The notes under the pieces were generated by a model. The model saw only the letters and a list, made by a program, of their open reading frames with translations. It was not told where the DNA came from and made no database searches. A DNA stretch of 25,018 bases from Candidatus Thorarchaeota archaeon (GTDB lineage: Archaea > Asgardarchaeota > Thorarchaeia > Thorarchaeales > Thorarchaeaceae), in the NCBI GenBank assembly GCA_048882485.1, contig JBHLRP010000025.1, forward strand, positions 19,195 to 44,212, in the 5' to 3' direction. Each line of letters starts with the position of its first letter. Position 1 is the stretch's first letter. Position numbers and translations under genes: made by a program. This document shows, piece after piece, positions 2,875-14,563 of the stretch.

Positions 2875-3435
2875 CTAGATTCCCAAGTCTGCTCTGGCTT
2901 CGATTTCCTGCTGATCCTGTAGAATCTTTTTCATTTGATGGCGAAGCTGTGCCTTAAGCCTGATTCTATCATGGTCGAGACCAAAATAATCAGCAAAGAG
3001 GGTCGTAGTCTTCAGCAATTTACTCCTTCCCTCAGGGACCGCCTCAATGAACTTCTTCTCAATCAGTTCTTTGATGTGGTCATAGCAGTGAGTCCCCCTC
3101 TCAGCCACAAGCTCTGATTGTAGGATGGGCTGCTTTAGGGCCACATAAACCAGTGTTTGAAGCGTGGCGAATGATAGAAGTCCGCCTGGGATGAGCTTCG
3201 CGACATGGGGAGTCAATTCAGGCCTGAGTTGCATCACCCATCGCTCTCGGGGAAGCTCCACAACCTCAAGTGCTCCCTTTCGTTTGTTGTACATATGACC
3301 AATCTCTTCCAACACTCGTTTTGTAGAGGACTCGGCTTTTCCTAAGACCGCAGCCAGCTCCTCTATTGAAATGGGCCTTCCTGCTACATAGAGGGCAGCC
3401 TCCAGTTTCACCTTGTCATCATCCATAGAACTCAC
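2875..3435 (-). CDS. scpB: SMC-Scp complex subunit ScpB
   Basis: LEAALYVAGRP, TLVYVALKQPI, TTTLFADYFGL; overlaps the scpA stop. Confidence 0.95.
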   Translation of the reverse strand: MSSMDDDKVKLEAALYVAGRPISIEELAAVLGKAESSTKRVLEEIGHMYNKRKGALEVVELPRERWVMQLRPELTPHVAKLIPGGLLSFATLQTLVYVALKQPILQSELVAERGTHCYDHIKELIEKKFIEAVPEGRSKLLKTTTLFADYFGLDHDRIRLKAQLRHQMKKILQDQQEIEARADLGI

Positions 3436-4148
3436 TTCGTTTCAATAGATGGGTGTATCTCATCATCATCCTCAGACGGCGGTGGGGGAGGAAGCATCTT
3501 TACCCAGATGATTTCGTCTTCATCCATCCAGATGTCAATAAACGCTCTTCCATAGAGGTGAAGCAGGGCAAAGAAGACGCGGACAATCTCCCTTCGCGTA
3601 TTGTTCATAAGAATATCAACAAATTTCGCAGTTTCGCCAATCTCCATTATTTTCAAGAGGTCGTCATAGACTTCAGTTATGTTCTCCTCAACGTCTGCCC
3701 GTGTGGTTTCCATTTTGAAGTCCATTGGCTCTATGCTGGGTCGATATCTTTTCTTTCTCGGAATAGCGCGCTGACGGGGACCTTTACTCAGCATTCTGTC
3801 CATCGCTATAAGCAGTTCTTGAAGAGTGACTCGCTGATTGCTCACTCTAAATGGAGGCCGAATCAAAGGAATGACGAGTTCTTCATCATCTGCATCTCTA
3901 TCCGGAGGAAGAATCCCAAGCTCAACGAGTTCACGAGTTTTCCTCATGAAGATGACAGATGCCGAATACAACGCACTTCCTGAGATTCTGAAGTCAATGT
4001 CTCCTAGTCGCTTCATCTCGCGAATGAACCCTGCAACTAGCTTACCGACATCAACATTCCATGGTTTGATTTTATCCAGTTGAAGTACATCAGTGAGGAG
4101 AATATAAGGTGGAGACGCCCAGAATGGTGAGTCCTCTTCCTCACTCAT
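3432..4148 (-). CDS. scpA: Kleisin ScpA
   Basis: IKPWNVDV, IDFRISGSAL, VTLQELL, FFALLHL; lies between smc and scpB with 4-nt overlaps. Confidence 0.92.
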   Translation of the reverse strand: MSEEEDSPFWASPPYILLTDVLQLDKIKPWNVDVGKLVAGFIREMKRLGDIDFRISGSALYSASVIFMRKTRELVELGILPPDRDADDEELVIPLIRPPFRVSNQRVTLQELLIAMDRMLSKGPRQRAIPRKKRYRPSIEPMDFKMETTRADVEENITEVYDDLLKIMEIGETAKFVDILMNNTRREIVRVFFALLHLYGRAFIDIWMDEDEIIWVKMLPPPPPSEDDDEIHPSIETK

Positions 4149-7100
4149 GCTACTTCCGCCACCTCCTCTAAGTCGAGCTTTACGATTCTTGAAATGCCAT
4201 CCTGATTTGACACGCCAACTAGGAGGTCTGCTTTCCTAACTGTCGTCGTTCTCAAAGATACAACAATGAACTGAGATGATTTCGCCATCTCTGCGATAAG
4301 AAGAGCTACATTATGGGCATTGACATCATCTAATGCAGCATCAATCTCATCGAACACATAGAAGCTTGCTGGATTGTACATCTGGATTGCGAATATGAGC
4401 GCAAGACCTGTGATCGTCTTCTCGCCACCACTCATGGCATCTAGGGTCACCAATTCTTTTCCTCTCGGCTTGGATCTAACGGTGATGCCGCCCATAAGTG
4501 GATGTTCTGGATTTTCAAGCATGAGTGTCGCCTCACCACCAGGCGAGAGCTTGGCAAAGACCTTTGCGAAGTTGTCTGCAATGTCATTGTAGACCTGGAG
4601 GAATTTTCTGGTCTTCTCAGCTTCAATCTCTTCCATAAAGGCAAGAATCTCCTTGTGCTCCTCTTCAAGTCGAGTCTTCTTGTCAACAATCTCCTCGTAT
4701 TGGTCTTTCTCGATATCATAATCTGTGAGAGCCTTCAAGTTGACAGGTCCTAGCACATCGAGCTCTCTCTCGAATTCCTTTATCTTGTCGTCGAAGGCAT
4801 CAATCTCCTTGTAAGTCAGCTCCGGCTCTTTCGCCTTCTTAGCCATCTCTTCACTGGCATCCGCTAGTTCATTCAGTTCAGCTATGAGTCCAACTAAGTC
4901 GCTTTCAAGTCTTGATTGCTCAGTCTGAAGCCTATAGACTGCCTTCTCATTCGCAGTCTGTTCCTCTCGAATCTCCTCATGACGGAATCTGAGGTTTCGG
5001 AGATGTTCTTTCAACTCAAGCTGGCGAACTCGTTTGTCTTTCACCGCTTCGTCTATTTTCTCACGTTCGGCCTTCAGCTTCTCGAAGTCCTGTTCTTTCC
5101 CCTTCACATCAGATTGTAACGCATCTACTCGGTTCTCTAGGTCTGGAATACCCTTCTGTACTGTCTTCAGGCGCACATCTAACTCGGTGAGCTTTGGCTT
5201 GAGACGTTCATCCAGTGCTACTTTCAGACCAGTTATTTCGCTTGTTAGAACCTCGCGTTCCTGGTTGTGGTGATTGAGAACCTCTTTGAGATCTTTTAGA
5301 TACTGCGTTAGTTTAGCGGTGTCGGATGTAGCTAAGGTTTCATTGGCCTCATCTCTTTGTTCTCTGACCCTCTCTCTGTGCTCTGACAGTTCAGAGTTTC
5401 TCTCCTGAAGCTCTGAAATCTGAGTTTCGAGTTCCTTGATTGTAACTTGTGCCTTCTCAATCCTTTCCTTGAGAAGGGCAGTCCTATTCTCCTTCTCTTC
5501 CAATCGTTCTTCAAGTCCTTCTAGATCGAGCTTCGCTCTATAGTTGTTCTTCGAGAGGTCTTGAATCTCTAGGTCCAGCTTGCTCTTTTCCTTTTGAAGG
5601 CTATCCTGCTTACTGCGTAACTCCGCCAATATTTCACTCAGTCCCTTGAGACGTTTGGCTATCTCTGGACTGGTGTCTTCCAATTGAAGGGAGAGACCGG
5701 TTGCAGGTTTGTAATAGTGACCGCCAGTAATCAGACCTGATCGTTCAACCAGATCGCCCTCTAGTGATACTGCTCTACGCCCCTTGAATCCCATTACCTT
5801 TGCGGTTTCAAAGTCCTCCGTGACTAATGTGTCCTGGAAAACAAACTCGAAGGCTGGTCGCATTTTTTCATCGAATTTTACAAGGTCAATCGCCAGACCT
5901 ATGACTCCTCTGTCATGAGGGACTTTCCCTGGCTTTTTGGTGCTAATTCTATTAAGGGGGATGAATGAAGCTCTACCGACCTTCTCAATCTTAAGTATGT
6001 TAACACATTTAGTGGCCACATTGTCATCCTCTACCACAATATGAGTGAGCCTGCTCCCTCCAGCGATTTCCATGGCTGAGGCATACTCAGAGTCGATTGT
6101 ACCCAGCTCAGCTACTGTTCCATGGATGCCTTCTATAGTCTTTGAGTCACGGAGTTCGAGAATTCGACGGATTGCACGTTGTCGCTTTAGGAATGCTTCT
6201 TCAGCCTCTTTCAAGGCATCCTGTCGCGCCTGGACGCGAATCAGTTCCTCTTTTGTCTTCTCGACTATCTGGGCTGATTCTCGAACCTGCGCTCCGACAT
6301 TCTTGAGATTGTTCTCAATTCTCACGACTTCAGTTCTCTTATTCTCTTCACTCTCTTCAGCTTGCTTGAGGGTTTCGCGTCTTTCAGGTATCACTCTGCG
6401 GAGGTCTGACAGCTCCTCTTCCGTCTTTTCCAGCATCTCTGTCGAATCGCGAAGCTCCTCATAGGTCATTCCAAGCTCTTTGCTATCGGTCTTTATGGCT
6501 GAACGAACCTCAGACACACCTTCATCAAGCGCTCTCATCTGATTGTTGAGATCCTGCAGCCTTAGGGTGATTTCAAATGATGTTGCCTGTTCCTTCTCTA
6601 TTCGATCCTCCAATCCGCTAATCTTGTTTGTACAGCTCAGTATCTCATCATCCAATCTAGCAAGCTCTTGATCCTTCTCCTTGATGAGTGCCTCTGAACC
6701 ACTCACTTGGTCTTGAATTGATTGAATCTCAACCTCAACAGAATTTCGTTCTTCCATCTTCGTGTTGTATTCGCCCTGCACACGTTCAAGATCTGCTCTT
6801 GCATGGTCTAAAGCAGCTGAAACAACTCCGTATTGCTCTGAGATTCTGGCAGAGTCTCCACCTGTTATTTGGTCAATTTCTCCATCAATGTTCTCGATCT
6901 CAAGGTCTGTGTCACTAATGCCTTGTTCAACTTCAACGAGTTCCCTAGAGAGATTCTCCGCCTCTTCTGCTCTTTCGGCCAGAGTCTCTTGGATAGTTTC
7001 AATCCTGCTCTTTCCTTTGATAGTCCGCCAAGCTATGCTGTCGATTCTGACCTGTTCTATTTGCTTGTGAAGACTCTGATGTCTGCGGGCGTCCGTCATT

Positions 7101-7735
7101 TCCTCCTCAAGCTTTTCCAGCTGGCGCCTTCGTTCCTGAAGCTGCATCTCGACTTTTCCGAGATTGGTTTCACTCTCTGCGAGCCTCTTGAGCGCGCGTT
7201 CCTTCTGTTCATCGTATGCAGATATTCCTGCAATCTCTTCTACTAGCTTACGTCTATCTGTGGGGCTTACTTTCACAATCTGTGCAATCTCTCCTTGTAG
7301 AACCAGATTGTATCCGTTGGGATCGACACCAATTGCCCCTAGGACCTCTATGACCTGCGTTCTTGTTACAACTTTGCCATTGATTCGGCAAGTAGATTTG
7401 CCGGAATCATCCAGCTCTCTCTCAATCATAACTTTGTCTGAGTCTATCTGTAACTTTCTATCTCTGTTATCAAAATGAAGCTCTACGGTGGCAGACTTGG
7501 CTTTTGGAGGCATATCCGGTTTTGGTGGCGAATACAGAAGGTCCGAGAAGACGTTTGCACGAAGTGTCTTTGCACTCAGCTGACCAAGAACAAACAATAC
7601 CGCATCGATGACGTTTGACTTACCTGATCCATTTGGTCCAACAATACACGTGAAGCCCTCGTTGAGTCTGATGGTGACTGTGTCTCGTCCAAATGACTTG
7701 AAGCCCTTGCATACTAGCTTCTCTATGTGGACCAA
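4145..7735 (-). CDS. smc: Chromosome segregation protein SMC
   Basis: GFKSF, Walker A GPNGSGKS, hinge (GIHGTVAEL...GRASFIPL...GLITGG), signature MSGGEK, Walker B/D-loop FDEIDAALD; TTG start. Confidence 0.98.
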   Translation of the reverse strand: MVHIEKLVCKGFKSFGRDTVTIRLNEGFTCIVGPNGSGKSNVIDAVLFVLGQLSAKTLRANVFSDLLYSPPKPDMPPKAKSATVELHFDNRDRKLQIDSDKVMIERELDDSGKSTCRINGKVVTRTQVIEVLGAIGVDPNGYNLVLQGEIAQIVKVSPTDRRKLVEEIAGISAYDEQKERALKRLAESETNLGKVEMQLQERRRQLEKLEEEMTDARRHQSLHKQIEQVRIDSIAWRTIKGKSRIETIQETLAERAEEAENLSRELVEVEQGISDTDLEIENIDGEIDQITGGDSARISEQYGVVSAALDHARADLERVQGEYNTKMEERNSVEVEIQSIQDQVSGSEALIKEKDQELARLDDEILSCTNKISGLEDRIEKEQATSFEITLRLQDLNNQMRALDEGVSEVRSAIKTDSKELGMTYEELRDSTEMLEKTEEELSDLRRVIPERRETLKQAEESEENKRTEVVRIENNLKNVGAQVRESAQIVEKTKEELIRVQARQDALKEAEEAFLKRQRAIRRILELRDSKTIEGIHGTVAELGTIDSEYASAMEIAGGSRLTHIVVEDDNVATKCVNILKIEKVGRASFIPLNRISTKKPGKVPHDRGVIGLAIDLVKFDEKMRPAFEFVFQDTLVTEDFETAKVMGFKGRRAVSLEGDLVERSGLITGGHYYKPATGLSLQLEDTSPEIAKRLKGLSEILAELRSKQDSLQKEKSKLDLEIQDLSKNNYRAKLDLEGLEERLEEKENRTALLKERIEKAQVTIKELETQISELQERNSELSEHRERVREQRDEANETLATSDTAKLTQYLKDLKEVLNHHNQEREVLTSEITGLKVALDERLKPKLTELDVRLKTVQKGIPDLENRVDALQSDVKGKEQDFEKLKAEREKIDEAVKDKRVRQLELKEHLRNLRFRHEEIREEQTANEKAVYRLQTEQSRLESDLVGLIAELNELADASEEMAKKAKEPELTYKEIDAFDDKIKEFERELDVLGPVNLKALTDYDIEKDQYEEIVDKKTRLEEEHKEILAFMEEIEAEKTRKFLQVYNDIADNFAKVFAKLSPGGEATLMLENPEHPLMGGITVRSKPRGKELVTLDAMSGGEKTITGLALIFAIQMYNPASFYVFDEIDAALDDVNAHNVALLIAEMAKSSQFIVVSLRTTTVRKADLLVGVSNQDGISRIVKLDLEEVAEVA

Positions 7736-7930: not shown

Positions 7931-8293
7931 TCAGCTGACCATTGCCATCAAAGCTCGTTTGAGAGCCATTCTAAGCAGTCCCATGGACTCGCGAGCTCCT
8001 TCTCCCGCAATTCCAGCAAGAACAACCTTTACGTCGCCTAGAATCACAATGTAGCCATTGTCGGCCGCGACTGATACCTCTTTCAACCCTCCCTTGTCGA
8101 GACCGCTGGATAGTTGCGAGGAGTTTCCAGCAATCTTGACTGCGAGGTTTGCGACATCCGAATGTTTGATGCCCCCACTGATAGTATGACCAAAAATCAC
8201 CTTCCCCTTGGCATCGCATACCACTATGCCCTCTAGGTTCTCATTGGCCGCCATTGTATCGGCAATCACTTGTTTTACCTTTTCTTCATCCAC
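7931..8293 (-). CDS. Roadblock/LC7 (LAMTOR2/MglB-like) domain protein, ~120 aa
   Basis: LEGIVVCDAKGKVI, GGLKEVSVAADNGYIVI, SMGLLRMALK. GTG at 8293 is preceded by GGAGAG; the track's longer N-terminus overlaps the divergent ORF. Confidence 0.8.
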   Translation of the reverse strand: MDEEKVKQVIADTMAANENLEGIVVCDAKGKVIFGHTISGGIKHSDVANLAVKIAGNSSQLSSGLDKGGLKEVSVAADNGYIVILGDVKVVLAGIAGEGARESMGLLRMALKRALMAMVS

Positions 8294-8432
8294 TTTGACA
8301 TACTCTCCGTGGGCACTGCCTCTTTGATTTGGTGCTGTTCTTCTAAAAACCGTTTCTCCTATAAATGGGAGTATTTCATTCGACTCCTTTCTGGAGAAAA
8401 ATAGATGAGGATGCGAGGGAAATATCTTTGAC

Positions 8433-8627
8433 ATGGACGAGGTTGAGATTCGTGATTTCATGAAGTATCTGTTGATAATCGAAATCCTGTTCTTCATACC
8501 GGGAGGGGTCATCGTGACAAACATGCACCCTCTATGGATGCAACAAATGGTCTATACTCTTTTCCTGAGTATTATTGTCACAGGTGCCGTCTACGTGTTG
8601 GTGTCCAGAAGAATCGAGAGGTACTAA
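8433..8627 (+). CDS. Small two-TM membrane protein (64 aa)
   Basis: Two hydrophobic segments and a basic C-terminal tail (SRRIERY); fills the gap upstream of the Sec23/24-like gene. Confidence 0.6.
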   Translation: MDEVEIRDFMKYLLIIEILFFIPGGVIVTNMHPLWMQQMVYTLFLSIIVTGAVYVLVSRRIERY

Positions 8628-8729
8628 TCAGATTCAAACCACCGGAATTGAGGATTGGTGCATGATTTTCATAGCTTAGGTTAAATACGTAAATGTGAAC
8701 CTAGTCCCAAGACTTTTGGAGTCGATTTT

Positions 8730-10355
8730 ATGCCTATGCTGAGAACTACTTCGGAGGCCTTTCCTTCATCAAAAGATGTACTGAAAGACCTCCCATACGT
8801 CTTGCGAGTCGAATTTGGAGACTTGGCACGAGACGTTACCAAGATTGTTGGCAAGCCAATTGCTTGCCATAAATGCAATGGCTTCCTTCTCAGTGTAGAT
8901 CAGATACTAGAGGATGACAAGGTCGGAAAGCACTTTGTCTGTCCCTTCTGTGGTACACTGAATGTTATTGAAGGGGAGATAGTCGTCGCAGGCGACGATA
9001 CAGACTTCGTTGTGAAGCCACCACAAGAAATAGAGACCGGTACTGATACAATCTCAACAGGCGGCCGGTCTTTCTTGGCGTTGATAGACGTTTCTGGATC
9101 CATGGCTGGTGAGAACCTGGCTGCAGTGAAGCGCAGTCTAAACACATCAATTGACAGTCTGGCAGCCAACACTCCAGACACAATGTTTGGTCTGATTGAG
9201 TTTGAGAGCTCTGTAATCTGCAGGAATCTGGAGACCGGAGAGCCCATCGAACTCCCAAGAGAGTCCTTCCAAAGTCTGGACTCAATCATGGACTCGACAA
9301 AACGCTTGTTGGACAAAATCAAGATGGTCAAGGTCGGTGACAAGTCATCAGACCTGAAGAATCACGTCGCAGCTCTGCGAGACCAAGGCGGAACTGCGCT
9401 GGGACCAGCTGTGGGAATGGCCTACACCATAGCCAAACACCGAGATGTTGGTCGAATTGTCCTTCTTACTGATGGACTTGCAAACGAGGGAATTGGCGCC
9501 CTTGAGGGATACCAGGTCACACCTGCGAACAAATACTACGAGGACCTTGGTGATGAGTTCAGAAAGATTGGAGCCGCCTTCGATGTCGTAGGCATCGCGT
9601 CAGGTGGAGCCATGGAGCTCAAGACACTGGGCCTGCTGCCTGAGGCTACCGGGGGCACTATGTACTATGTGACTCCCAATGAACTGGATAGAAGCCTCTC
9701 AGAGCTTGCAGGAGCAACCCTTCTAGGCCGTGACGTTGAGGTCAAACTCATCACACCTGAGGGTGTCAAGCTCAAAGATGCATCAGGAGCATCCCGTGCA
9801 GTTCTTGATGAGCTCAAGAAGAAAGGCGGCGGAAAGATTGGAGTTGTTGGTGAGGACCATGAGCTATACTTCGAGGTAGAGCCTGAGAAGAAGATCAAGG
9901 GTGAAGAAGTCCCGATTCAGGTACAGGTTTCCTACACCGACAATGAGGGCGCGAGGAGGGTCCGTGCAGTGACAACCAAGCTCAAGGTCTCTGAGAAAGA
10001 AGATGAGATCATGAAGACTCTCGACCCAACTGTAGGCGCTACCTTTGTCACTCAGAAAGCTGGTGAGGATGCAGTAAGAGGGGACCGCAAGAAGGGCAAG
10101 GAGAGACTTGCCTCATTCAGGACCGCTATGAAGGCTCGTGCTAAGGCCGCACCCAAGCCAGTCAAGGCGATGCTCGATAAGGCGGATGATGTCCTTGAGA
10201 GTGAGGAAGAAGAGCTTGAACGTCAGGAGGCACGAATGATGGAGGCTCCTGCCGGAGGTGCTGCACCATCTGCAGCCGCTGACATGACCGCGGTCGAGAA
10301 CCTTGCTCAAATGAAGCGCAGCTCCAAGAGAATGTTCGAGGACGACGAAGAATAG
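8730..10355 (+). CDS. Sec23/Sec24-like protein (Zn finger, vWA trunk, beta-sandwich, helical tail)
   Basis: PIACHKC...FVCPFCGTLN matches the Sec23/24 Zn finger. vWA motifs IDVSGS, GGTALGPA, LLTDG. IQVQVSYTDNEGARRVRAVT matches the Sec23/24 beta-sandwich signature. Confidence 0.85.
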   Translation: MPMLRTTSEAFPSSKDVLKDLPYVLRVEFGDLARDVTKIVGKPIACHKCNGFLLSVDQILEDDKVGKHFVCPFCGTLNVIEGEIVVAGDDTDFVVKPPQEIETGTDTISTGGRSFLALIDVSGSMAGENLAAVKRSLNTSIDSLAANTPDTMFGLIEFESSVICRNLETGEPIELPRESFQSLDSIMDSTKRLLDKIKMVKVGDKSSDLKNHVAALRDQGGTALGPAVGMAYTIAKHRDVGRIVLLTDGLANEGIGALEGYQVTPANKYYEDLGDEFRKIGAAFDVVGIASGGAMELKTLGLLPEATGGTMYYVTPNELDRSLSELAGATLLGRDVEVKLITPEGVKLKDASGASRAVLDELKKKGGGKIGVVGEDHELYFEVEPEKKIKGEEVPIQVQVSYTDNEGARRVRAVTTKLKVSEKEDEIMKTLDPTVGATFVTQKAGEDAVRGDRKKGKERLASFRTAMKARAKAAPKPVKAMLDKADDVLESEEEELERQEARMMEAPAGGAAPSAAADMTAVENLAQMKRSSKRMFEDDEE

Positions 10356-10364
10356 ACGATGACA

Positions 10365-10407
10365 GAGTGGCGTTGCAGCACGCAGCGTCGCTCAAACCTC
10401 TTTTTTT
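10365..10407 (+). terminator. Hairpin plus T7 terminator
   Basis: 12-bp stem 10365-10376/10382-10393 with three G-U pairs, followed by T7 at 10401-10407. Confidence 0.6.
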
Positions 10408-10550
10408 CTATCATATGTGTCTGATTGACCAAAGTTTCAAAATGCGCAAACGGGCTCTCTTATCATAATAATGTCATCATAACTGCTAAATACCCAACTG
10501 CGGCGTTAGGATTTGTCAAATGGACAATTGATAGCAGCGGAGATTCTACT

Positions 10551-10847
10551 TTGATAAGTCAAGAGCGACTAAAAAGCATCCTTCAACAGCTCAAGGCCCA
10601 AGACGGAGTCCGTGGGGTTGTGGTCACCACCATGGAAGGTCTTCCTCTGAGCAGTGACTTGGATGCAGACACAACCGAAAATGTCGCTGCAATCATCACC
10701 TCTCTTGTAGGAAAGGCACTGGACACGGTGCGCCTCCTACGTGAGGGATCATTGTCCTTCCTAACCTTGGACACAACACAAGGTCAAATAAACATCGCAC
10801 CCGATGAAAAAGAGGGCCTAATATTAGTGGTCCTCAAGAAGAACTAG
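10551..10847 (+). CDS. Roadblock/LC7 protein, dynein light chain roadblock-like (98 aa)
   Basis: GVRGVVVTTMEGLPLSS...KALDTVR...LSFLTL...INIAPD; TTG 10551 follows GGAG. Confidence 0.88.
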   Translation: MISQERLKSILQQLKAQDGVRGVVVTTMEGLPLSSDLDADTTENVAAIITSLVGKALDTVRLLREGSLSFLTLDTTQGQINIAPDEKEGLILVVLKKN

Positions 10848-10864
10848 TATATGGGGCTATATCC

Positions 10865-11335
10865 ATGAGCGATCCGAAAGCGTTCGACAGAATCCTCACG
10901 GACATCATCCGTCAAGAGAAGGGAATCCGCAAGGTCATCCTTGTAGATAAGACAGGTCTGACCATTGCTAACGTGAGCAAGCTGTCATATTATCCAGTGG
11001 ACGTCGACAGTATCGGCGCAATTGCGTCCGCGGTCTTTTGTGCCTCAGAGGAACAAGGGAAAAATCTGCAGATTGGCGAGCTTGAGATCGTAACGAGCGA
11101 GTTTAGCGAGGGCAAGATATTCGCATCTGCGTGCGGGAAGGGTGTGCTGTGCGTTGTGTCTGATGCCGATGTCAACATAGGCATGATACGCCTTGTCATG
11201 AAGAAGCAGGGTGTACAGCTCGCAGACGAGCTTGACAAGTTCCTAGCAGTGGAGCCATTAGCTCCCAGCGGCAAGGACAAGGAGCTGGATGAGGAGGACC
11301 TAAAGTCCGCCCTCGCAGAGCTTGAGAGGGTCTGA
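10865..11335 (+). CDS. Roadblock/LC7 protein, MglB-like with acidic C-terminal helix
   Basis: GIRKVILVDKTGLTIA, VNIGMIRLVMKK; tail LDEEDLKSALAELERV; lies directly upstream of the MglA-type GTPase. Confidence 0.88.
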   Translation: MSDPKAFDRILTDIIRQEKGIRKVILVDKTGLTIANVSKLSYYPVDVDSIGAIASAVFCASEEQGKNLQIGELEIVTSEFSEGKIFASACGKGVLCVVSDADVNIGMIRLVMKKQGVQLADELDKFLAVEPLAPSGKDKELDEEDLKSALAELERV

Positions 11336-11391
11336 CCGCTGCGAGGCGGTTGACCTTGTACGCTCTACAGTCCCAATTGTGCCACAAACCC

Positions 11392-11484
11392 TTTTATGAG
11401 ACCACACTTTTGGGCTTATCAGCCCCCCGAGCAGGGCCTCTATTTGAGGCCAAAACCAGCACAGGCAGTGACGCAGCGAGGTGA
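11392..11484 (+). promoter_or_regulatory. Putative TATA element, two hairpins and SD upstream of the GTPase
   Basis: TTTTATGA at 11392; hairpins GGGCT/AGCCC (11412-11425) and GGCCTC/GAGGCC (11435-11451); SD GAGGTGA at 11478-11484. Confidence 0.45.
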
Positions 11485-11490
11485 ACAGCG

Positions 11491-12054
11491 ATACGTAAAG
11501 ACGACAAAGGCCGCATACATCTCAAGTTGGTCTTCTACGGACCATCACTCGGAGGTAAAACAACTGCACTTCGTTGGCTCTACGGAAAAGTTGAGGGCCT
11601 CCAGAAAGGAGAGTTCACTGCAATCGAGGATGAAACCAACCGCACTCTGTTCTTTGACTATGTTCCAATGAGTGCTGGAGGCCGAGTGCTCTTTGATGTG
11701 TTCACCGTCGCTGGTCAGAAGCGGCACAGGCACCAAAGAAAAGTAGTGCTCCAGGGCACTGATGGCATACTGTTTGTTGCTGACTCTTCCCCAGATCAGA
11801 GAGATGAGAACACGGAGAGCTTTGAGGAACTCAAGCTTTTCTTAGGAGATGCTCTGGGGCGCGAGATACCAATTGTAGTCATGCTAAACAAGCGAGACCT
11901 ACCTAATAGAATGTCTCGAGATGAGATGCTAGACCTTCTCGGTCTTGGAGGCAATGTCCCCATCTACGAAACGATTGCTGTCCAAGGCGTAGGAGTTAAG
12001 AGGGCGTTTCAGGCAATAGCGAGGGAAGTAATCCTCAAAAGAATGTACAAATGA
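11491..12054 (+). CDS. MglA-family small GTPase (probable ATA start; track start TTG 11527)
   Basis: G1 GPSLGGKTT, MglA-type switch I RTLFFD, G3 TVAGQ, GILFVADS, G4 NKRD, G5 TIA. Confidence 0.92.
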   Translation: MRKDDKGRIHLKLVFYGPSLGGKTTALRWLYGKVEGLQKGEFTAIEDETNRTLFFDYVPMSAGGRVLFDVFTVAGQKRHRHQRKVVLQGTDGILFVADSSPDQRDENTESFEELKLFLGDALGREIPIVVMLNKRDLPNRMSRDEMLDLLGLGGNVPIYETIAVQGVGVKRAFQAIAREVILKRMYK

Positions 12055-12071
12055 TTGACTAGGTGAGGCGA

Positions 12072-12443
12072 ATGTCAGAGACCCGCGGAGACACTTTGGA
12101 AGGCGTTCTTAATGAACTTCAGGGGAGTATACCTGAGATTGAGGCGTGCGCAATAGTCAGCGTAGAAGGACTTCCGATTGTGTCAGCTTTGCCAACGGAT
12201 GTTGATGAGGCAAAGGTTGCTGCGATGACTGCGGCTATGCTGACTCTTGGCGAGAAAGCCGCAATTGAACTTGGAAAGGGCAATCTAGAGCAGGTCAATA
12301 TCAAAGGTATCGAAGGCTGGCTTCTTGTTATTCAGGCTGGAATGAACGCCTGTCTCACGGTGTCTACTACCGCTAGTGCCAAGCTAGGAATGGTCTTCCT
12401 TGAGATGAAACGTGCAGCAGAGAAAGTTTCTGGGATGATCTAG
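12072..12443 (+). CDS. Roadblock/LC7 domain protein
   Basis: IEACAIVSVEGLPIVSAL, VAAMTAAMLTLGE, LGMVFLEMKR; ATG 12072 lies 5 nt after AGGTGA. Confidence 0.92.
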   Translation: MSETRGDTLEGVLNELQGSIPEIEACAIVSVEGLPIVSALPTDVDEAKVAAMTAAMLTLGEKAAIELGKGNLEQVNIKGIEGWLLVIQAGMNACLTVSTTASAKLGMVFLEMKRAAEKVSGMI

Positions 12444-12523: not shown

Positions 12524-13291
12524 GTGAACCTGACAGGCCCCGTGTACAGACTCTATGAATACTTTCTACATAGGCAGTTACACAAAGACAAGGCGCCCCG
12601 TCATGTTGGGATAATTCTGGACGGAAATAGACGCTATGCACGTCAACATGGACTTGAGGTCCCTTGGTTCGGACACCAGAAAGGTGCTCAGAAGGTCATG
12701 GAGGTCTTGAAAATTCTCTGGGAGGCTGGAGTCAAAGTCTGCACTCTCTATGCCTTCTCGGTAGAAAACTTCCAGCGAAAGCAAGATGAAGTCGATGAGA
12801 TAATGGCCATTGCCAAAGACAAGTTCAGCGAGGTAGTGGGCAATCCGGATGTACACAAACATAGGGTTCGTATCCAAGCTATTGGAAGAGTAGACCTCTT
12901 GCCAGACGAGGTCCAACTGGCCATAGCACAGGCCGAAGAGGAAACTCGGGACTACAATGATCACATCCTGAATGTTGCCATTGGCTATTCAGGTAGAGCA
13001 GAACTTGTGGATGCAGTACAGGCGATTGGAGAGAAGATTCAGTCAGGCAGTCTAGATCCCTCCAAAGTCGATGAAGAATTGATTGAGAAACACCTCTATA
13101 CCAACGGCATTCCTGATCCCGACCTGATAATTAGAACATCAGGTGAAGAACGCCTGTCAGGCTTCCTTCTCTGGCAGTCTGCCTATTCAGAGCTATATTT
13201 CGCACAGATGTACTGGCCTGCTGTTAGGCGGATTGATATCTGGAGAGCACTTAGATCATATGAACGAAGGGCTCGTCGCTTTGGTTCATGA
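12524..13291 (+). CDS. uppS: cis-prenyltransferase (polyprenyl diphosphate synthase)
   Basis: HVGIILDGNRRYA, YAFSVENFQR, PDLIIRTSGEERLSGFLLWQSAYSEL. Confidence 0.96.
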   Translation: MNLTGPVYRLYEYFLHRQLHKDKAPRHVGIILDGNRRYARQHGLEVPWFGHQKGAQKVMEVLKILWEAGVKVCTLYAFSVENFQRKQDEVDEIMAIAKDKFSEVVGNPDVHKHRVRIQAIGRVDLLPDEVQLAIAQAEEETRDYNDHILNVAIGYSGRAELVDAVQAIGEKIQSGSLDPSKVDEELIEKHLYTNGIPDPDLIIRTSGEERLSGFLLWQSAYSELYFAQMYWPAVRRIDIWRALRSYERRARRFGS

Positions 13292-13366: not shown

Positions 13367-14563
13367 TTGGCACGAAAGCCAATTGATGTCTACCAAGGTC
13401 TGATTAAGACAAAGCTCTTGGTAGATAGCGTTTCACATATCGATTCTGTAGTTGGACGTTATAAGGACCACATGCTGGTTGGCCAGAAGCTCTCTTTTCA
13501 TCTCAGAAGGTTCGTAGAATTCTGGAGTAGACACTACGCATTCCTTGATAACCGTGAAACAACGACTCTCTCCGACCTAACGATCGCCATAGATTTGCTG
13601 GATTATTTCACATCCACTTCTAAATGGTGGACAATGACAAGAGAGGATCCCGGACTTGTCTTGAGGCTTCCATCCCGCGACCCTCGAGAATTCATAAAAT
13701 CGATTCCCCTAATTCAGATGGGAGGTGAAACTCTCGGTCGTGTTACTGGTGCAAGAAACCGTCTCGTTCGCTTTCTAGAGGAACATGAATTAGGCGACGA
13801 TAATACTCGTGCAGCACTGGCTGAACATCTAGTATCGACTTGGCTGCTCCTTTGTGGCTTTTCCTGCAAAGGGCAGGGACGGAACATCACAACGGAAGAA
13901 GATTTTGAAACTGCATATGACATTGTTCGGATTCTTCTCTTCTACATGTCCCTCAACGATTTCAAGGCACTCACTGCAGTGCGTCAGATTGCCACGGATC
14001 CTAACCTCCCTAAGATTGCAGTGATTGGTTTCTCCCCTGGGTTTGAACGAAAACTCGACTCCTCACTCGCTGCAAGCTTGGAACGTCTGCATGGCGAATA
14101 TCTTACAAAAGTGGCTACTTCAACTTCTGGTGCATCAAGAAACATTCTCACCAACTCTTTGCGCATCCTAGGGCAAATACAGGCGATGAAACTTGAGTTG
14201 ACTAGGATTGAGAAAGAAGACTATGACTCAATTATTGTCGGAGCTATGGGCCTCCTTGAAACGCTTGATGTACCTGCAAGGCTGCTCCAGGACGAAGACG
14301 AAGTTGTAGCGTTGTTCAAGAGCCTACAACCAGGAGAAGGTTTTGAAGAGAAGCTATCTCTTCTAACAAGAAGAATAGAGGGATTGCTTGTAGACTCGGC
14401 TGGTAACAGGGACTACGTGCTTCAATATGCTAGAATGGTTCCGCGGATTATAGCTTTGTTACTCTTGGTTGCTGCGGCAACCAAGACGGAACCGACAGAG
14501 CCTCTTCAAGATCAGGATTTGAAGAGAGGTCTCATTCTACTCAATAGACTGTTCAGTGGCTAG
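13367..14563 (+). CDS. Hypothetical helical protein with four ~100-aa AAA+ lid-like repeats
   Basis: Long ORF with TATA and SD; a recurrent motif centred on D70, D179, D285 and D384. Confidence 0.7.
   Translation: MARKPIDVYQGLIKTKLLVDSVSHIDSVVGRYKDHMLVGQKLSFHLRRFVEFWSRHYAFLDNRETTTLSDLTIAIDLLDYFTSTSKWWTMTREDPGLVLRLPSRDPREFIKSIPLIQMGGETLGRVTGARNRLVRFLEEHELGDDNTRAALAEHLVSTWLLLCGFSCKGQGRNITTEEDFETAYDIVRILLFYMSLNDFKALTAVRQIATDPNLPKIAVIGFSPGFERKLDSSLAASLERLHGEYLTKVATSTSGASRNILTNSLRILGQIQAMKLELTRIEKEDYDSIIVGAMGLLETLDVPARLLQDEDEVVALFKSLQPGEGFEEKLSLLTRRIEGLLVDSAGNRDYVLQYARMVPRIIALLLLVAAATKTEPTEPLQDQDLKRGLILLNRLFSG

Follow-up and report, generated by a model that had tools for sequence, protein, structure and literature searches.

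This report concerns a 25,018-nucleotide stretch of DNA (the window) from a contig of a Candidatus Thorarchaeota metagenome-assembled genome that is 90.5% complete, in which the gene for a Sec23/24-like protein (Sec23L) lies among genes for an MglA-type small GTPase and several roadblock proteins. On the forward strand the order is roadblock (Robl0, minus strand), Sec23L, roadblock (Robl1), roadblock (Robl2), MglA-type GTPase (MglA) and roadblock (Robl3), and the whole is placed between condensin genes and UppS. We use the term cassette for Robl0 and the divergently oriented Robl1-Robl2-MglA-Robl3, with UppS next to them. The window's own Thorarchaeota family is labelled f1; f2, f12 and so on are other Asgard families, and G numbers denote genomes. 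Profile searches were run against Pfam with its curated cut-offs (23 bits for Robl_LC7, PF03259).

Gene models and predicted transcription units

Sec23L (541 aa; positions 8730-10355, plus strand) was identified by Pfam, an AlphaFold2 (AF2) model and Foldseek. Upstream of it lies Robl0, a divergent roadblock/LC7 protein of ~120 aa (7931-8293, minus strand), for which a GTG start at 8293 was inferred within the listed open reading frame (ORF) 7931-8524; its transcription runs away from the remaining cluster. The other cassette genes are on the plus strand. Robl1 (98 aa; 10551-10847) is of the LC7/DYNLRB type and has a TTG start inside the listed ORF 10425-10847. It is followed by the MglB-like Robl2 (156 aa; 10865-11335), which matches Pfam Robl_LC7 and carries an acidic C-terminal extension past this domain, by MglA (187 aa; 11491-12054, listed ORF 11527-12054) and by a further Robl_LC7 protein, Robl3 (126 aa; 12063-12443), the start of which is 9 nt past MglA.

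In 20 orthologs the MglA reading frame extends 12-13 codons upstream to a shared start codon, which is ATG in seven, GTG in four, TTG in two and ATT in four (from three genera), and which in the window is ATA (11491). This ATA sits 6 nt past the Shine-Dalgarno sequence GAGGTGA (11478-11484), and the orthologs usually have a GAGGTG-type sequence before the start. The N-terminus, M/I-RKDDKGRIHLKLVFYGP, is conserved among orthologs. TTG at 11527 and the ATG-initiated ORF 11396-11671 were both rejected as the beginning of the GTPase since the ortholog N-terminus is conserved from codon 11491. The use of ATA or ATT suggests deliberately weak or regulated initiation of a very conserved MglA. For Robl1, the motif AGCAGCGGAGAT...TTGATAAGTCAAGAG, kept across genera, points to the TTG at 10551; distant orthologs span 98-113 codons from stop to stop. 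The MglA ATA/ATT start, the Robl1 TTG start and the promoter motifs described below are practical gains for annotation.

The Sec23L promoter and leader (8680-8729) contain a TATA-like sequence, GTTAAATACGTAAATG (8680-8695), and the Shine-Dalgarno sequence GGAG (8718-8721). In f1 orthologs, an A/T-rich box ~45-55 nt before the gene and a TTTTGGAG Shine-Dalgarno motif before the ATG recur. Past the Sec23L stop codon, a terminator-like element on the plus strand (10365-10407), read directly from the sequence, consists of an 8-bp hairpin with two G-U pairs (10365-10393) and a T7 tract (10401-10407). This site was not listed in a sigma-70/terminator scan of bacterial design. A T-rich tract, mostly preceded by a hairpin, follows the Sec23L stop in ~10 of the 17 f1 genomes.

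The promoter region of Robl1-Robl2 (10442-10550) comprises a TGCGCAA box, a TATA-like sequence, CTAAATAC (10486-10493), and the Shine-Dalgarno sequence GCGGAGA (10537-10543). The box reads ATGCGCAAA here (10442-10450) and the palindromic TTGCGCAA in some relatives, and is sometimes duplicated. It lies ~35-45 nt upstream of the Robl1 TATA box, which recurs in most genomes in a CTAAAATA-type form. We found the TGCGCAA box in 16 of the 17 f1 genomes with Sec23L and also in G018 and G019, that is, in 18 of 19 f1 genomes (loci L026-L057). It occurs once in the intergenic DNA of the cluster and was not found upstream of Sec23L or MglA. In G018 and G019, which have the cassette without Sec23L, the box is likewise upstream of Robl1, and it therefore belongs to the cassette. 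It looks like a transcription-factor operator.

MglA has a promoter and leader of its own (11379-11490), with the motif GTGCCACAAACCCTTTTATGAGAC at 11379-11402 ahead of its Shine-Dalgarno sequence. The motif is recognisable in 7 of the 14 f1 orthologs shown, and it stays beside MglA where foreign genes separate Robl2 from MglA (L031, L057). Because of these conserved promoters and the terminator in non-coding sequence, the cluster can be divided provisionally into at least four units: Robl0; Sec23L; Robl1-Robl2; and MglA-Robl3, possibly with UppS. The suggestion in an original prediction, made from the sequence alone, that Sec23L need not be co-transcribed with the other genes holds, given the terminator and, after it, the conserved Robl1 promoter.

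The condensin genes are all on the minus strand: SMC (4145-7735), ScpA (3432-4148) and ScpB (2875-3435). On the other side, UppS (cis-prenyltransferase; 12524-13291, plus strand; Pfam Prenyltransf 1.5e-77) is followed by orf398 (13367-14563), which encodes 398 aa, has no Pfam match and is present in all f1 members at 39-62% identity. The original prediction had also counted a 64-aa membrane ORF (8433-8627, plus strand) as a gene, which we reject because it is not conserved even inside the genus. Its tblastn matches are confined to the window's species cluster, where a genome with a 100% identical Sec23L has an ORF that is only 87.5% identical, and nothing resembling it was found in any fetched locus beyond that cluster. 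Its site measures merely 133-197 bp in 14 of the 16 other f1 genomes, and 369 and 991 bp in the remaining two. Most likely, the ORF is part of a ~260-bp lineage-specific stretch in the Robl0/Sec23L intergenic region and not a gene. All other genes that had been listed are present where the prediction placed them or close by.

The GTPase, the roadblock proteins and Sec23L

The GTPase matches MglA chains in the PDB with E-values of 1.8e-36 to 6.8e-36, compared to 1.2e-11 for the best Arf, and is ~45% identical to solved MglA across the aligned stretch. Its G3 motif is T72-V-A-G75-Q76; across 20 orthologs, T72 and G75 do not vary and Q76 is conserved in at least 90%. This TxxGQ aligns with TVPGQ of Myxococcus xanthus MglA. 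Threonine in place of aspartate in G3 (TxxGQ replacing DxxGQ) is a hallmark of MglA. R51 is also invariant and aligns with the arginine of TDRTLFFD in switch I of MglA; the role of an intrinsic arginine finger has been described for Arg53 of Thermus thermophilus MglA (PMC10933270). GxxxxGKT and N133-K134-x-D136 are further invariant motifs. Two more MglA-type paralogs are encoded in the same genome (contigs C51 and C6; L049:5750-8253 and L048:7883-8773): one is encoded after a protein of 331 aa that has two roadblock domains in tandem, and the other carries an N-terminal extension of ~120 aa to which it is fused.

Among the roadblock proteins, Robl3 gave the strongest Pfam Robl_LC7 match (1.3e-15, 57.4 bits), with PDB 7f8m as its best solved match (E 1.4e-22). 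Robl1 matched Robl_LC7 at 9e-15 (54.6 bits) and LAMTOR5 above its cut-off (1.7e-6). In the PDB, it matched chain 7f8f, a 94-aa Robl_LC7 domain-containing protein, at E 4e-24 and a eukaryotic dynein light chain roadblock at E 2e-12. From their lengths we guess that 7f8f and 7f8m are probably the Odin (Odin-RBLC7) and Thor roadblocks crystallised previously (PMC10933270). Robl2 matched Robl_LC7 at 6e-10 (39.2 bits), MAPKK1_Int (LAMTOR3) above its cut-off (4.7e-7) and MglB in the PDB at E 6e-4. Robl0 stayed below the Robl_LC7 cut-off (E 1e-3, 17.5-19.2 bits), and a match to the solved roadblock 9jq8 (E 4e-7) was obtained independently of Pfam.

A close known counterpart of the cassette is the MglA-MglB(-MglC) polarity switch of M. 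xanthus and T. thermophilus. The likeness lies in the GTPase (E 2e-36; TxxGQ, switch-I arginine and NKxD), in the roadblock neighbours and in Robl2, which matches MglB and adds a C-terminal extension. In bacteria, additional roadblock paralogs such as MglC join the MglA system (PMC7949163, PMC9481161). The Asgard cassette differs in being archaeal, in having four distinct roadblock paralogs rather than one or two, with one of the eukaryotic dynein-LC7 type, and in being divided, by prediction, among three or more transcription units. In its surroundings we saw neither RomR/RomX nor Frz genes. The combination of several roadblocks with a small GTPase also resembles Ragulator (LAMTOR2-5)/Rag, Robl1 passing the LAMTOR5 and Robl2 the LAMTOR3 cut-off. 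However, the GTPase of the cassette is an MglA-type one that carries no roadblock domain at its C-terminus, and a LAMTOR1-like wrapper is missing.

Sec23L matched Pfam Sec23_trunk at 1.2e-10 (41.8 bits, cut-off 27) and Sec23_BS at 6e-8 (33.6 bits, cut-off 33.5). A VWA match was also obtained; zf-Sec23_Sec24 was weak (18 bits, below the cut-off of 25), and the Pfam model for the Sec23/24 helical domain had no match in the protein. The AF2 model, built from a 46-sequence alignment, has a pLDDT of 90.2 and a pTM of 0.89 and comprises N-terminal beta strands, a zinc finger, a von Willebrand factor A (vWA) trunk, a beta-sandwich (residues 331-421) and a helical domain (424-536). In Foldseek, the best 46 matches of this model are all Sec23 or Sec24, with 1m2v_A at E 5.5e-29 and a TM-score for the query (TMq) of 0.74, and with TMq up to 0.75; next in rank are a bacterial vWA protein and then Sulfolobus ArnAB (8s05). 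The zinc-finger cysteines C46, C49, C71 and C74 are invariant in the alignment. The MIDAS (metal ion-dependent adhesion site) is complete (D120-x-S122-x-S124, T222 and D248), and 45 of the 46 aligned homologs retain both zinc cysteines and MIDAS. Those retaining MIDAS include the 700-770-aa homologs in the alignment (P0160, P0161 and others), in which no Ras domain was detected.

Neither Pfam nor the AF2 model gave any gelsolin domain in Sec23L, which ends at residue 541, just past the helical domain. Its C-terminus (10300-10355) contains R-S-S-K-x-(L/M)-F, a motif present in most families and reading RSSKRMF here. A strongly charged tail comes next; this is acidic in f1 and f12 but polybasic in f9, f24, f27 and the f1 genome G098. 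Motif and tail may constitute a phospho-site, or a membrane- or MIDAS-binding tail.

The fold and domain order of Sec23L are those of Sec23/Sec24 in coat protein complex II (COPII), with a TMq of 0.74 to yeast Sec23. Unlike the COPII subunits, Sec23L lacks gelsolin and with it the arginine finger for Sar1, and it has an intact MIDAS; in a plain sequence search, it matches canonical Sec24 only marginally (18.8 bits, E 0.007). The locus offers no Sar1, Sec13/31 or Sec12 context, and no Sar1-type partner was identified. Nothing essential separates Sec23L from the published Asgard Sec23-like proteins: it is 77% identical to the Thorarchaeota SMTZ1-45 'SEC24 family transport protein' (P0021; PMC11914678) and has the same predicted architecture. 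Absence of gelsolin was reported for all Asgard Sec23-like proteins, which were also described as lacking the Sar1-contact residues, and in the three that were tested by co-immunoprecipitation, binding to an Asgard Arf did not depend on its nucleotide state (PMC11914678).

Outside Asgard, longer MIDAS-bearing proteins that match Sec23L at 100-127 bits are among its nearest relatives by sequence. In the eukaryotic CPRas proteins (Elias and Novotny 2008, PMC2430557), these scores come from the zinc-finger/MIDAS-vWA/beta-sandwich half, with DxSGSM, TALGP and TDGxAN in common. In CPRas proteins, however, the module is covalently fused to a Ras-like domain, whereas Sec23L stands alone and the neighbouring GTPase is of the MglA type and on a separate predicted transcript. 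By sequence, the Asgard Sec23-like protein groups with MIDAS-bearing zinc-finger-vWA proteins, including the eukaryotic cpRAS fusions, which points to a metal-dependent ligand-binding adaptor rather than a GTPase-activating protein (GAP). ArnA/ArnB of Sulfolobus (PDB 8s05; PMC12852372) is similar in having a vWA domain with MIDAS, a beta-sandwich, a helical domain and a zinc finger, and ArnAB has been called the archaeal counterpart of the Sec23/24 core by its authors (PMC12852372). It differs in that the zinc finger is on a separate FHA-domain protein; the TMq is 0.45, and no FHA or kinase partners are encoded at the Sec23L locus.

Conservation of the cassette and position of Sec23L

MglA orthologs were sampled in 41 genomes and Sec23L in 301 Asgard genomes. 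An MglA ortholog was present in 40 of the 41, and Sec23L was found in 115 of the 301, in nine families, which its quick tree follows. Three or four roadblocks accompany MglA in f2, f12, f13, f7, f4 and f8, and in the reduced loci of f5 and f14, Robl1 is the sole roadblock found beside it. Robl0 orthologs adjoin the cassette in f1, f2, f12, f4 and f8. The cassette occurs without Sec23L in genomes spanning seven families (G019, G025, G035, G036, G030, G027 and G031), some of these being families from which Sec23L is absent, and in none of f2, f12, f13, f7, f4, f8, f5 and f14 does Sec23L lie between Robl0 and Robl1. These comparisons suggest that the cassette is older than the adjacency of Sec23L.

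In f1, the block ScpB-ScpA-SMC-Robl0, followed by Sec23L-Robl1-Robl2-MglA-Robl3-UppS-orf398, is kept in 17 genomes from 14 genera. Across f1 genera, MglA is 91-100%, Robl2 81-94% and Robl3 80-98% identical, whereas Sec23L identity within the family is 53-85%; these ranges appear to reflect different selective regimes acting on Sec23L and on the cassette genes. Because the housekeeping flanks SMC-ScpA-ScpB, UppS and orf398 are equally syntenic, adjacency within f1 carries little independent weight.

Outside f1, we found Sec23L off the cassette in ~12 gene contexts from eight families. Its flanks in f2, f12, f19, f27, f9, f16 and f24 are mostly unrelated genes; neighbours encode DUF998, TauE, PHO4/PhoU, a beta-lactamase-like protein, a hexapeptide transferase, AsnC, an FGGY kinase, homoserine dehydrogenase, threonine synthase, Nre and OsmC.

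Within f1, the cassette also persists where Sec23L is gone or has moved. All that is left of Sec23L in G018 (96% complete) is a C-terminal remnant of 30 aa, in the gap from Robl0 to Robl1. From G052 (98% complete), Sec23L is absent; a break in the locus lies immediately upstream of Robl1, and Robl1, Robl2, MglA and Robl3 are still there. The cassette of G019 is intact but does not contain Sec23L, of which a fast-evolving copy is found elsewhere in the genome. We considered whether this copy is a horizontally acquired replacement and rejected this, as it nests in the f1 clade (SH-aLRT 99, quick tree). MglA and the roadblocks are still highly conserved in all three genomes.

Other genera carry foreign genes in the cassette gaps (L057:2066-6031, L031:3644-6000, L032:4112-6034 and L026:10485-11273), namely a ClC chloride channel with CBS domains, a methyltransferase with a TetR regulator, and a zinc-ribbon protein. 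The ClC or methyltransferase/TetR genes sit between Robl2 and MglA (L031, L057), and the zinc-ribbon gene elsewhere between MglA and Robl3; the insertion in L032 is a 293-aa ORF without Pfam match. The cassette gaps are recurrent insertion sites for unrelated genes.

Two side observations concern the surrounding gene order. UppS adjoins Robl3 in six Asgard families (f1, f2, f12, f13, f4 and f8), and SMC-ScpA-ScpB lie beyond Robl0 in three. The order from UppS to condensin is unusually old; it may reflect an envelope or segregation link, or chance. In a complete-looking genome of the same genus, a second, partial copy, SMC(1-556)-Robl0-Sec23L(1-179) (L035; G004:C1:924700-939200), lies ~330 kb from the full locus and may be a segmental duplication or an assembly artefact.

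Possible functions of the cassette and of Sec23L

The best explanation of the cluster, to which we give a probability of about 70%, is that two separate things lie side by side: an ancient, Asgard-wide MglA-roadblock switch, and a known Sec23/24-like gene that was inserted into it in one family. Architecture, ancestry and transcription-unit boundaries are drawn here from sequence comparison, and we infer the mechanism of each part as follows. The MglA-type GTPase, together with up to four roadblocks (Robl1, Robl2, Robl3 and the divergent Robl0), would form a small-GTPase switch. By analogy with bacterial MglA-MglB(-MglC), roadblock dimers would sit on the switch regions of MglA-GTP and position MglA's own R51 and Q76 for GTP hydrolysis, with a scaffolding or modulating role for the extra roadblocks. 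The Sec23L gene would have been inserted into the divergent Robl0-Robl1 intergenic region in the f1 ancestor, with its own promoter and terminator. Its product would be an adaptor composed of zinc finger, MIDAS-vWA, beta-sandwich and helical domain and lacking gelsolin, the GAP domain; it would bind a partner through the MIDAS metal site, and its C-terminal R-S-S-K-x-L-F motif and charged tail would modulate this binding. The most plausible role for Sec23L is that of a MIDAS-dependent adaptor, possibly with regulation through the C-terminal motif, as in ArnB (PMC12852372).

The original prediction had read the cluster as a GTPase-switched proto-coat or polarity module. Its assignments of the GTPase to the MglA type and of the large protein to Sec23/24 were borne out, as was a switch with several different roadblock partners, the cassette being real, very old and strongly conserved. 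The unified coat is not supported: the adjacency is found only in f1, the cassette survives loss or relocation of Sec23L, and the promoters are separate. Lack of conserved adjacency, which applies outside f1, had been named in the prediction itself as part of what would refute it. Judged by these comparisons, the position of Sec23L in the cassette does not amount to a demonstration of a primitive vesicle coat.

Several observations nevertheless weigh against treating the two parts as separate. Sec23L stayed at its exact position in the cassette across the whole of f1 while diverging to 53% identity, and the short divergent spacer upstream of it also serves Robl0. An archaeal T-tract terminator may, moreover, be read through. 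Small GTPases lie near Sec23L in three further lineages. In G055, an Arf-related GTPase gene (L064:6194-6865) is found upstream of the Sec23-like gene, on the same strand and at a distance of 126 bp; among solved structures, its product best matches PDB chains with the title 'Arf GTPase' (8ouk, 8oul). Genus g17 has a Ras-like GTPase 0.7-1.5 kb upstream of Sec23L, and g51 has one ~4 kb away. The genomes concerned carry 33-79 Ras-family genes each, and a GTPase within 1.5 kb of Sec23L was found in 3 of ~13 contexts, this locus included, against ~0.65 expected by chance from the GTPase densities measured (p ~0.03, a rough, post hoc value). Among the long homologs, 22 of 80 representatives of at least 600 aa have an N-terminal circularly permuted Ras domain fused to the module, and such CPRas fusions show that a module of the Sec23L type can work with a Ras-like domain; its pairing with small GTPases is recurrent.

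On these grounds, Sec23L could instead be an effector or platform of the MglA-roadblock switch, such that MglA-GTP recruits or releases the MIDAS-vWA adaptor at the membrane and the insertion was kept for co-regulation. Eukaryotic Sec23 is an effector of Sar1 (PMC11914678), and the adjacency has been held in 14 genera over deep divergence. We nevertheless consider this unlikely. The adjacency is much younger than the cassette and less widespread; Sec23L disappeared from two near-complete genomes and changed place in another, and the cassette genes of all three show no visible decay. The promoters are separate, with a terminator between and no shared operator; neighbouring housekeeping genes are equally syntenic in f1, and unrelated genes entered other cassette gaps. 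Sec23L also lacks the gelsolin domain that carries the arginine finger. The G055 pair, a single-genome arrangement, was rejected as an independent conserved association, as 70 of the 81 genomes in that family have an ortholog of its GTPase and few of them have Sec23L, which in the phylum sample occurs in 7 of 68 genomes of the family; in G235 and G281, the GTPase orthologs are on other contigs than Sec23L. None of the proximity or fusion evidence singles out MglA. A complex prediction for Sec23L (alignment A1) and MglA (alignment A2) with GTP and Mg scored 0.00 in both runs, which speaks neither for nor against binding.

A stronger form of this idea, which we regard as more doubtful still, makes Thorarchaeota Sec23L a genuine effector downstream of the switch. 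Heteromeric roadblock dimers would set MglA-GTP, which in turn would determine the site at the membrane where the MIDAS-vWA protein meets its ligand, and the Sar1-Sec23 logic, and in parallel the cpRAS-vWA fusions, would later have arisen from such a pre-eukaryotic adaptor with a different GTPase.

Finally, Sec23L could be an ArnB-like, phosphorylation-driven switch unrelated to GTPases, with the R-S-S-K-x-L-F motif phosphorylated, some other process controlled and an incidental cassette position, a proposal that fits the Foldseek match to ArnAB (E 2.5e-15, same domain order), the MIDAS intact as in ArnB, and a motif found in most families ahead of a tail that flips between acidic and polybasic among lineages, but that we hold to be the least probable, as Sec23/24 matches are far stronger (TMq 0.74 vs 0.45, E 5.5e-29 vs 2.5e-15), no kinase, phosphatase or FHA gene lies nearby in the window, and phosphorylation of the motif is pure conjecture. 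It would be compatible with an inserted Sec23L gene beside an independent cassette, and would refine the Sec23L part of that explanation.

Asgard Sec23/24-like proteins, MglA groups and roadblocks have been published (PMC11914678, PMC10933270, bioRxiv 10.1101/2024.02.28.582541); a full-text literature search found no paper on the conserved cassette of MglA and four roadblocks or on the position of Sec23L in it. If true, the coat reading would offer a testable archaeal precursor of COPII logic, in which a coat-like adaptor is under a small-GTPase switch. Gene position was the main argument for a proto-coat, and our evidence mostly removes it, so the cluster should not be cited as one. Collectively, the comparisons point instead to an MglA-roadblock switch that has been expanded and that, in one family, harbours a Sec23-like gene of known type. 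With one MglA and up to four roadblocks, including one of the dynein-LC7 type, under very strong constraint across Asgard families, the cassette is a good target for reconstitution, and it is relevant to how GTPase platforms of the Ragulator and MglB types originated.

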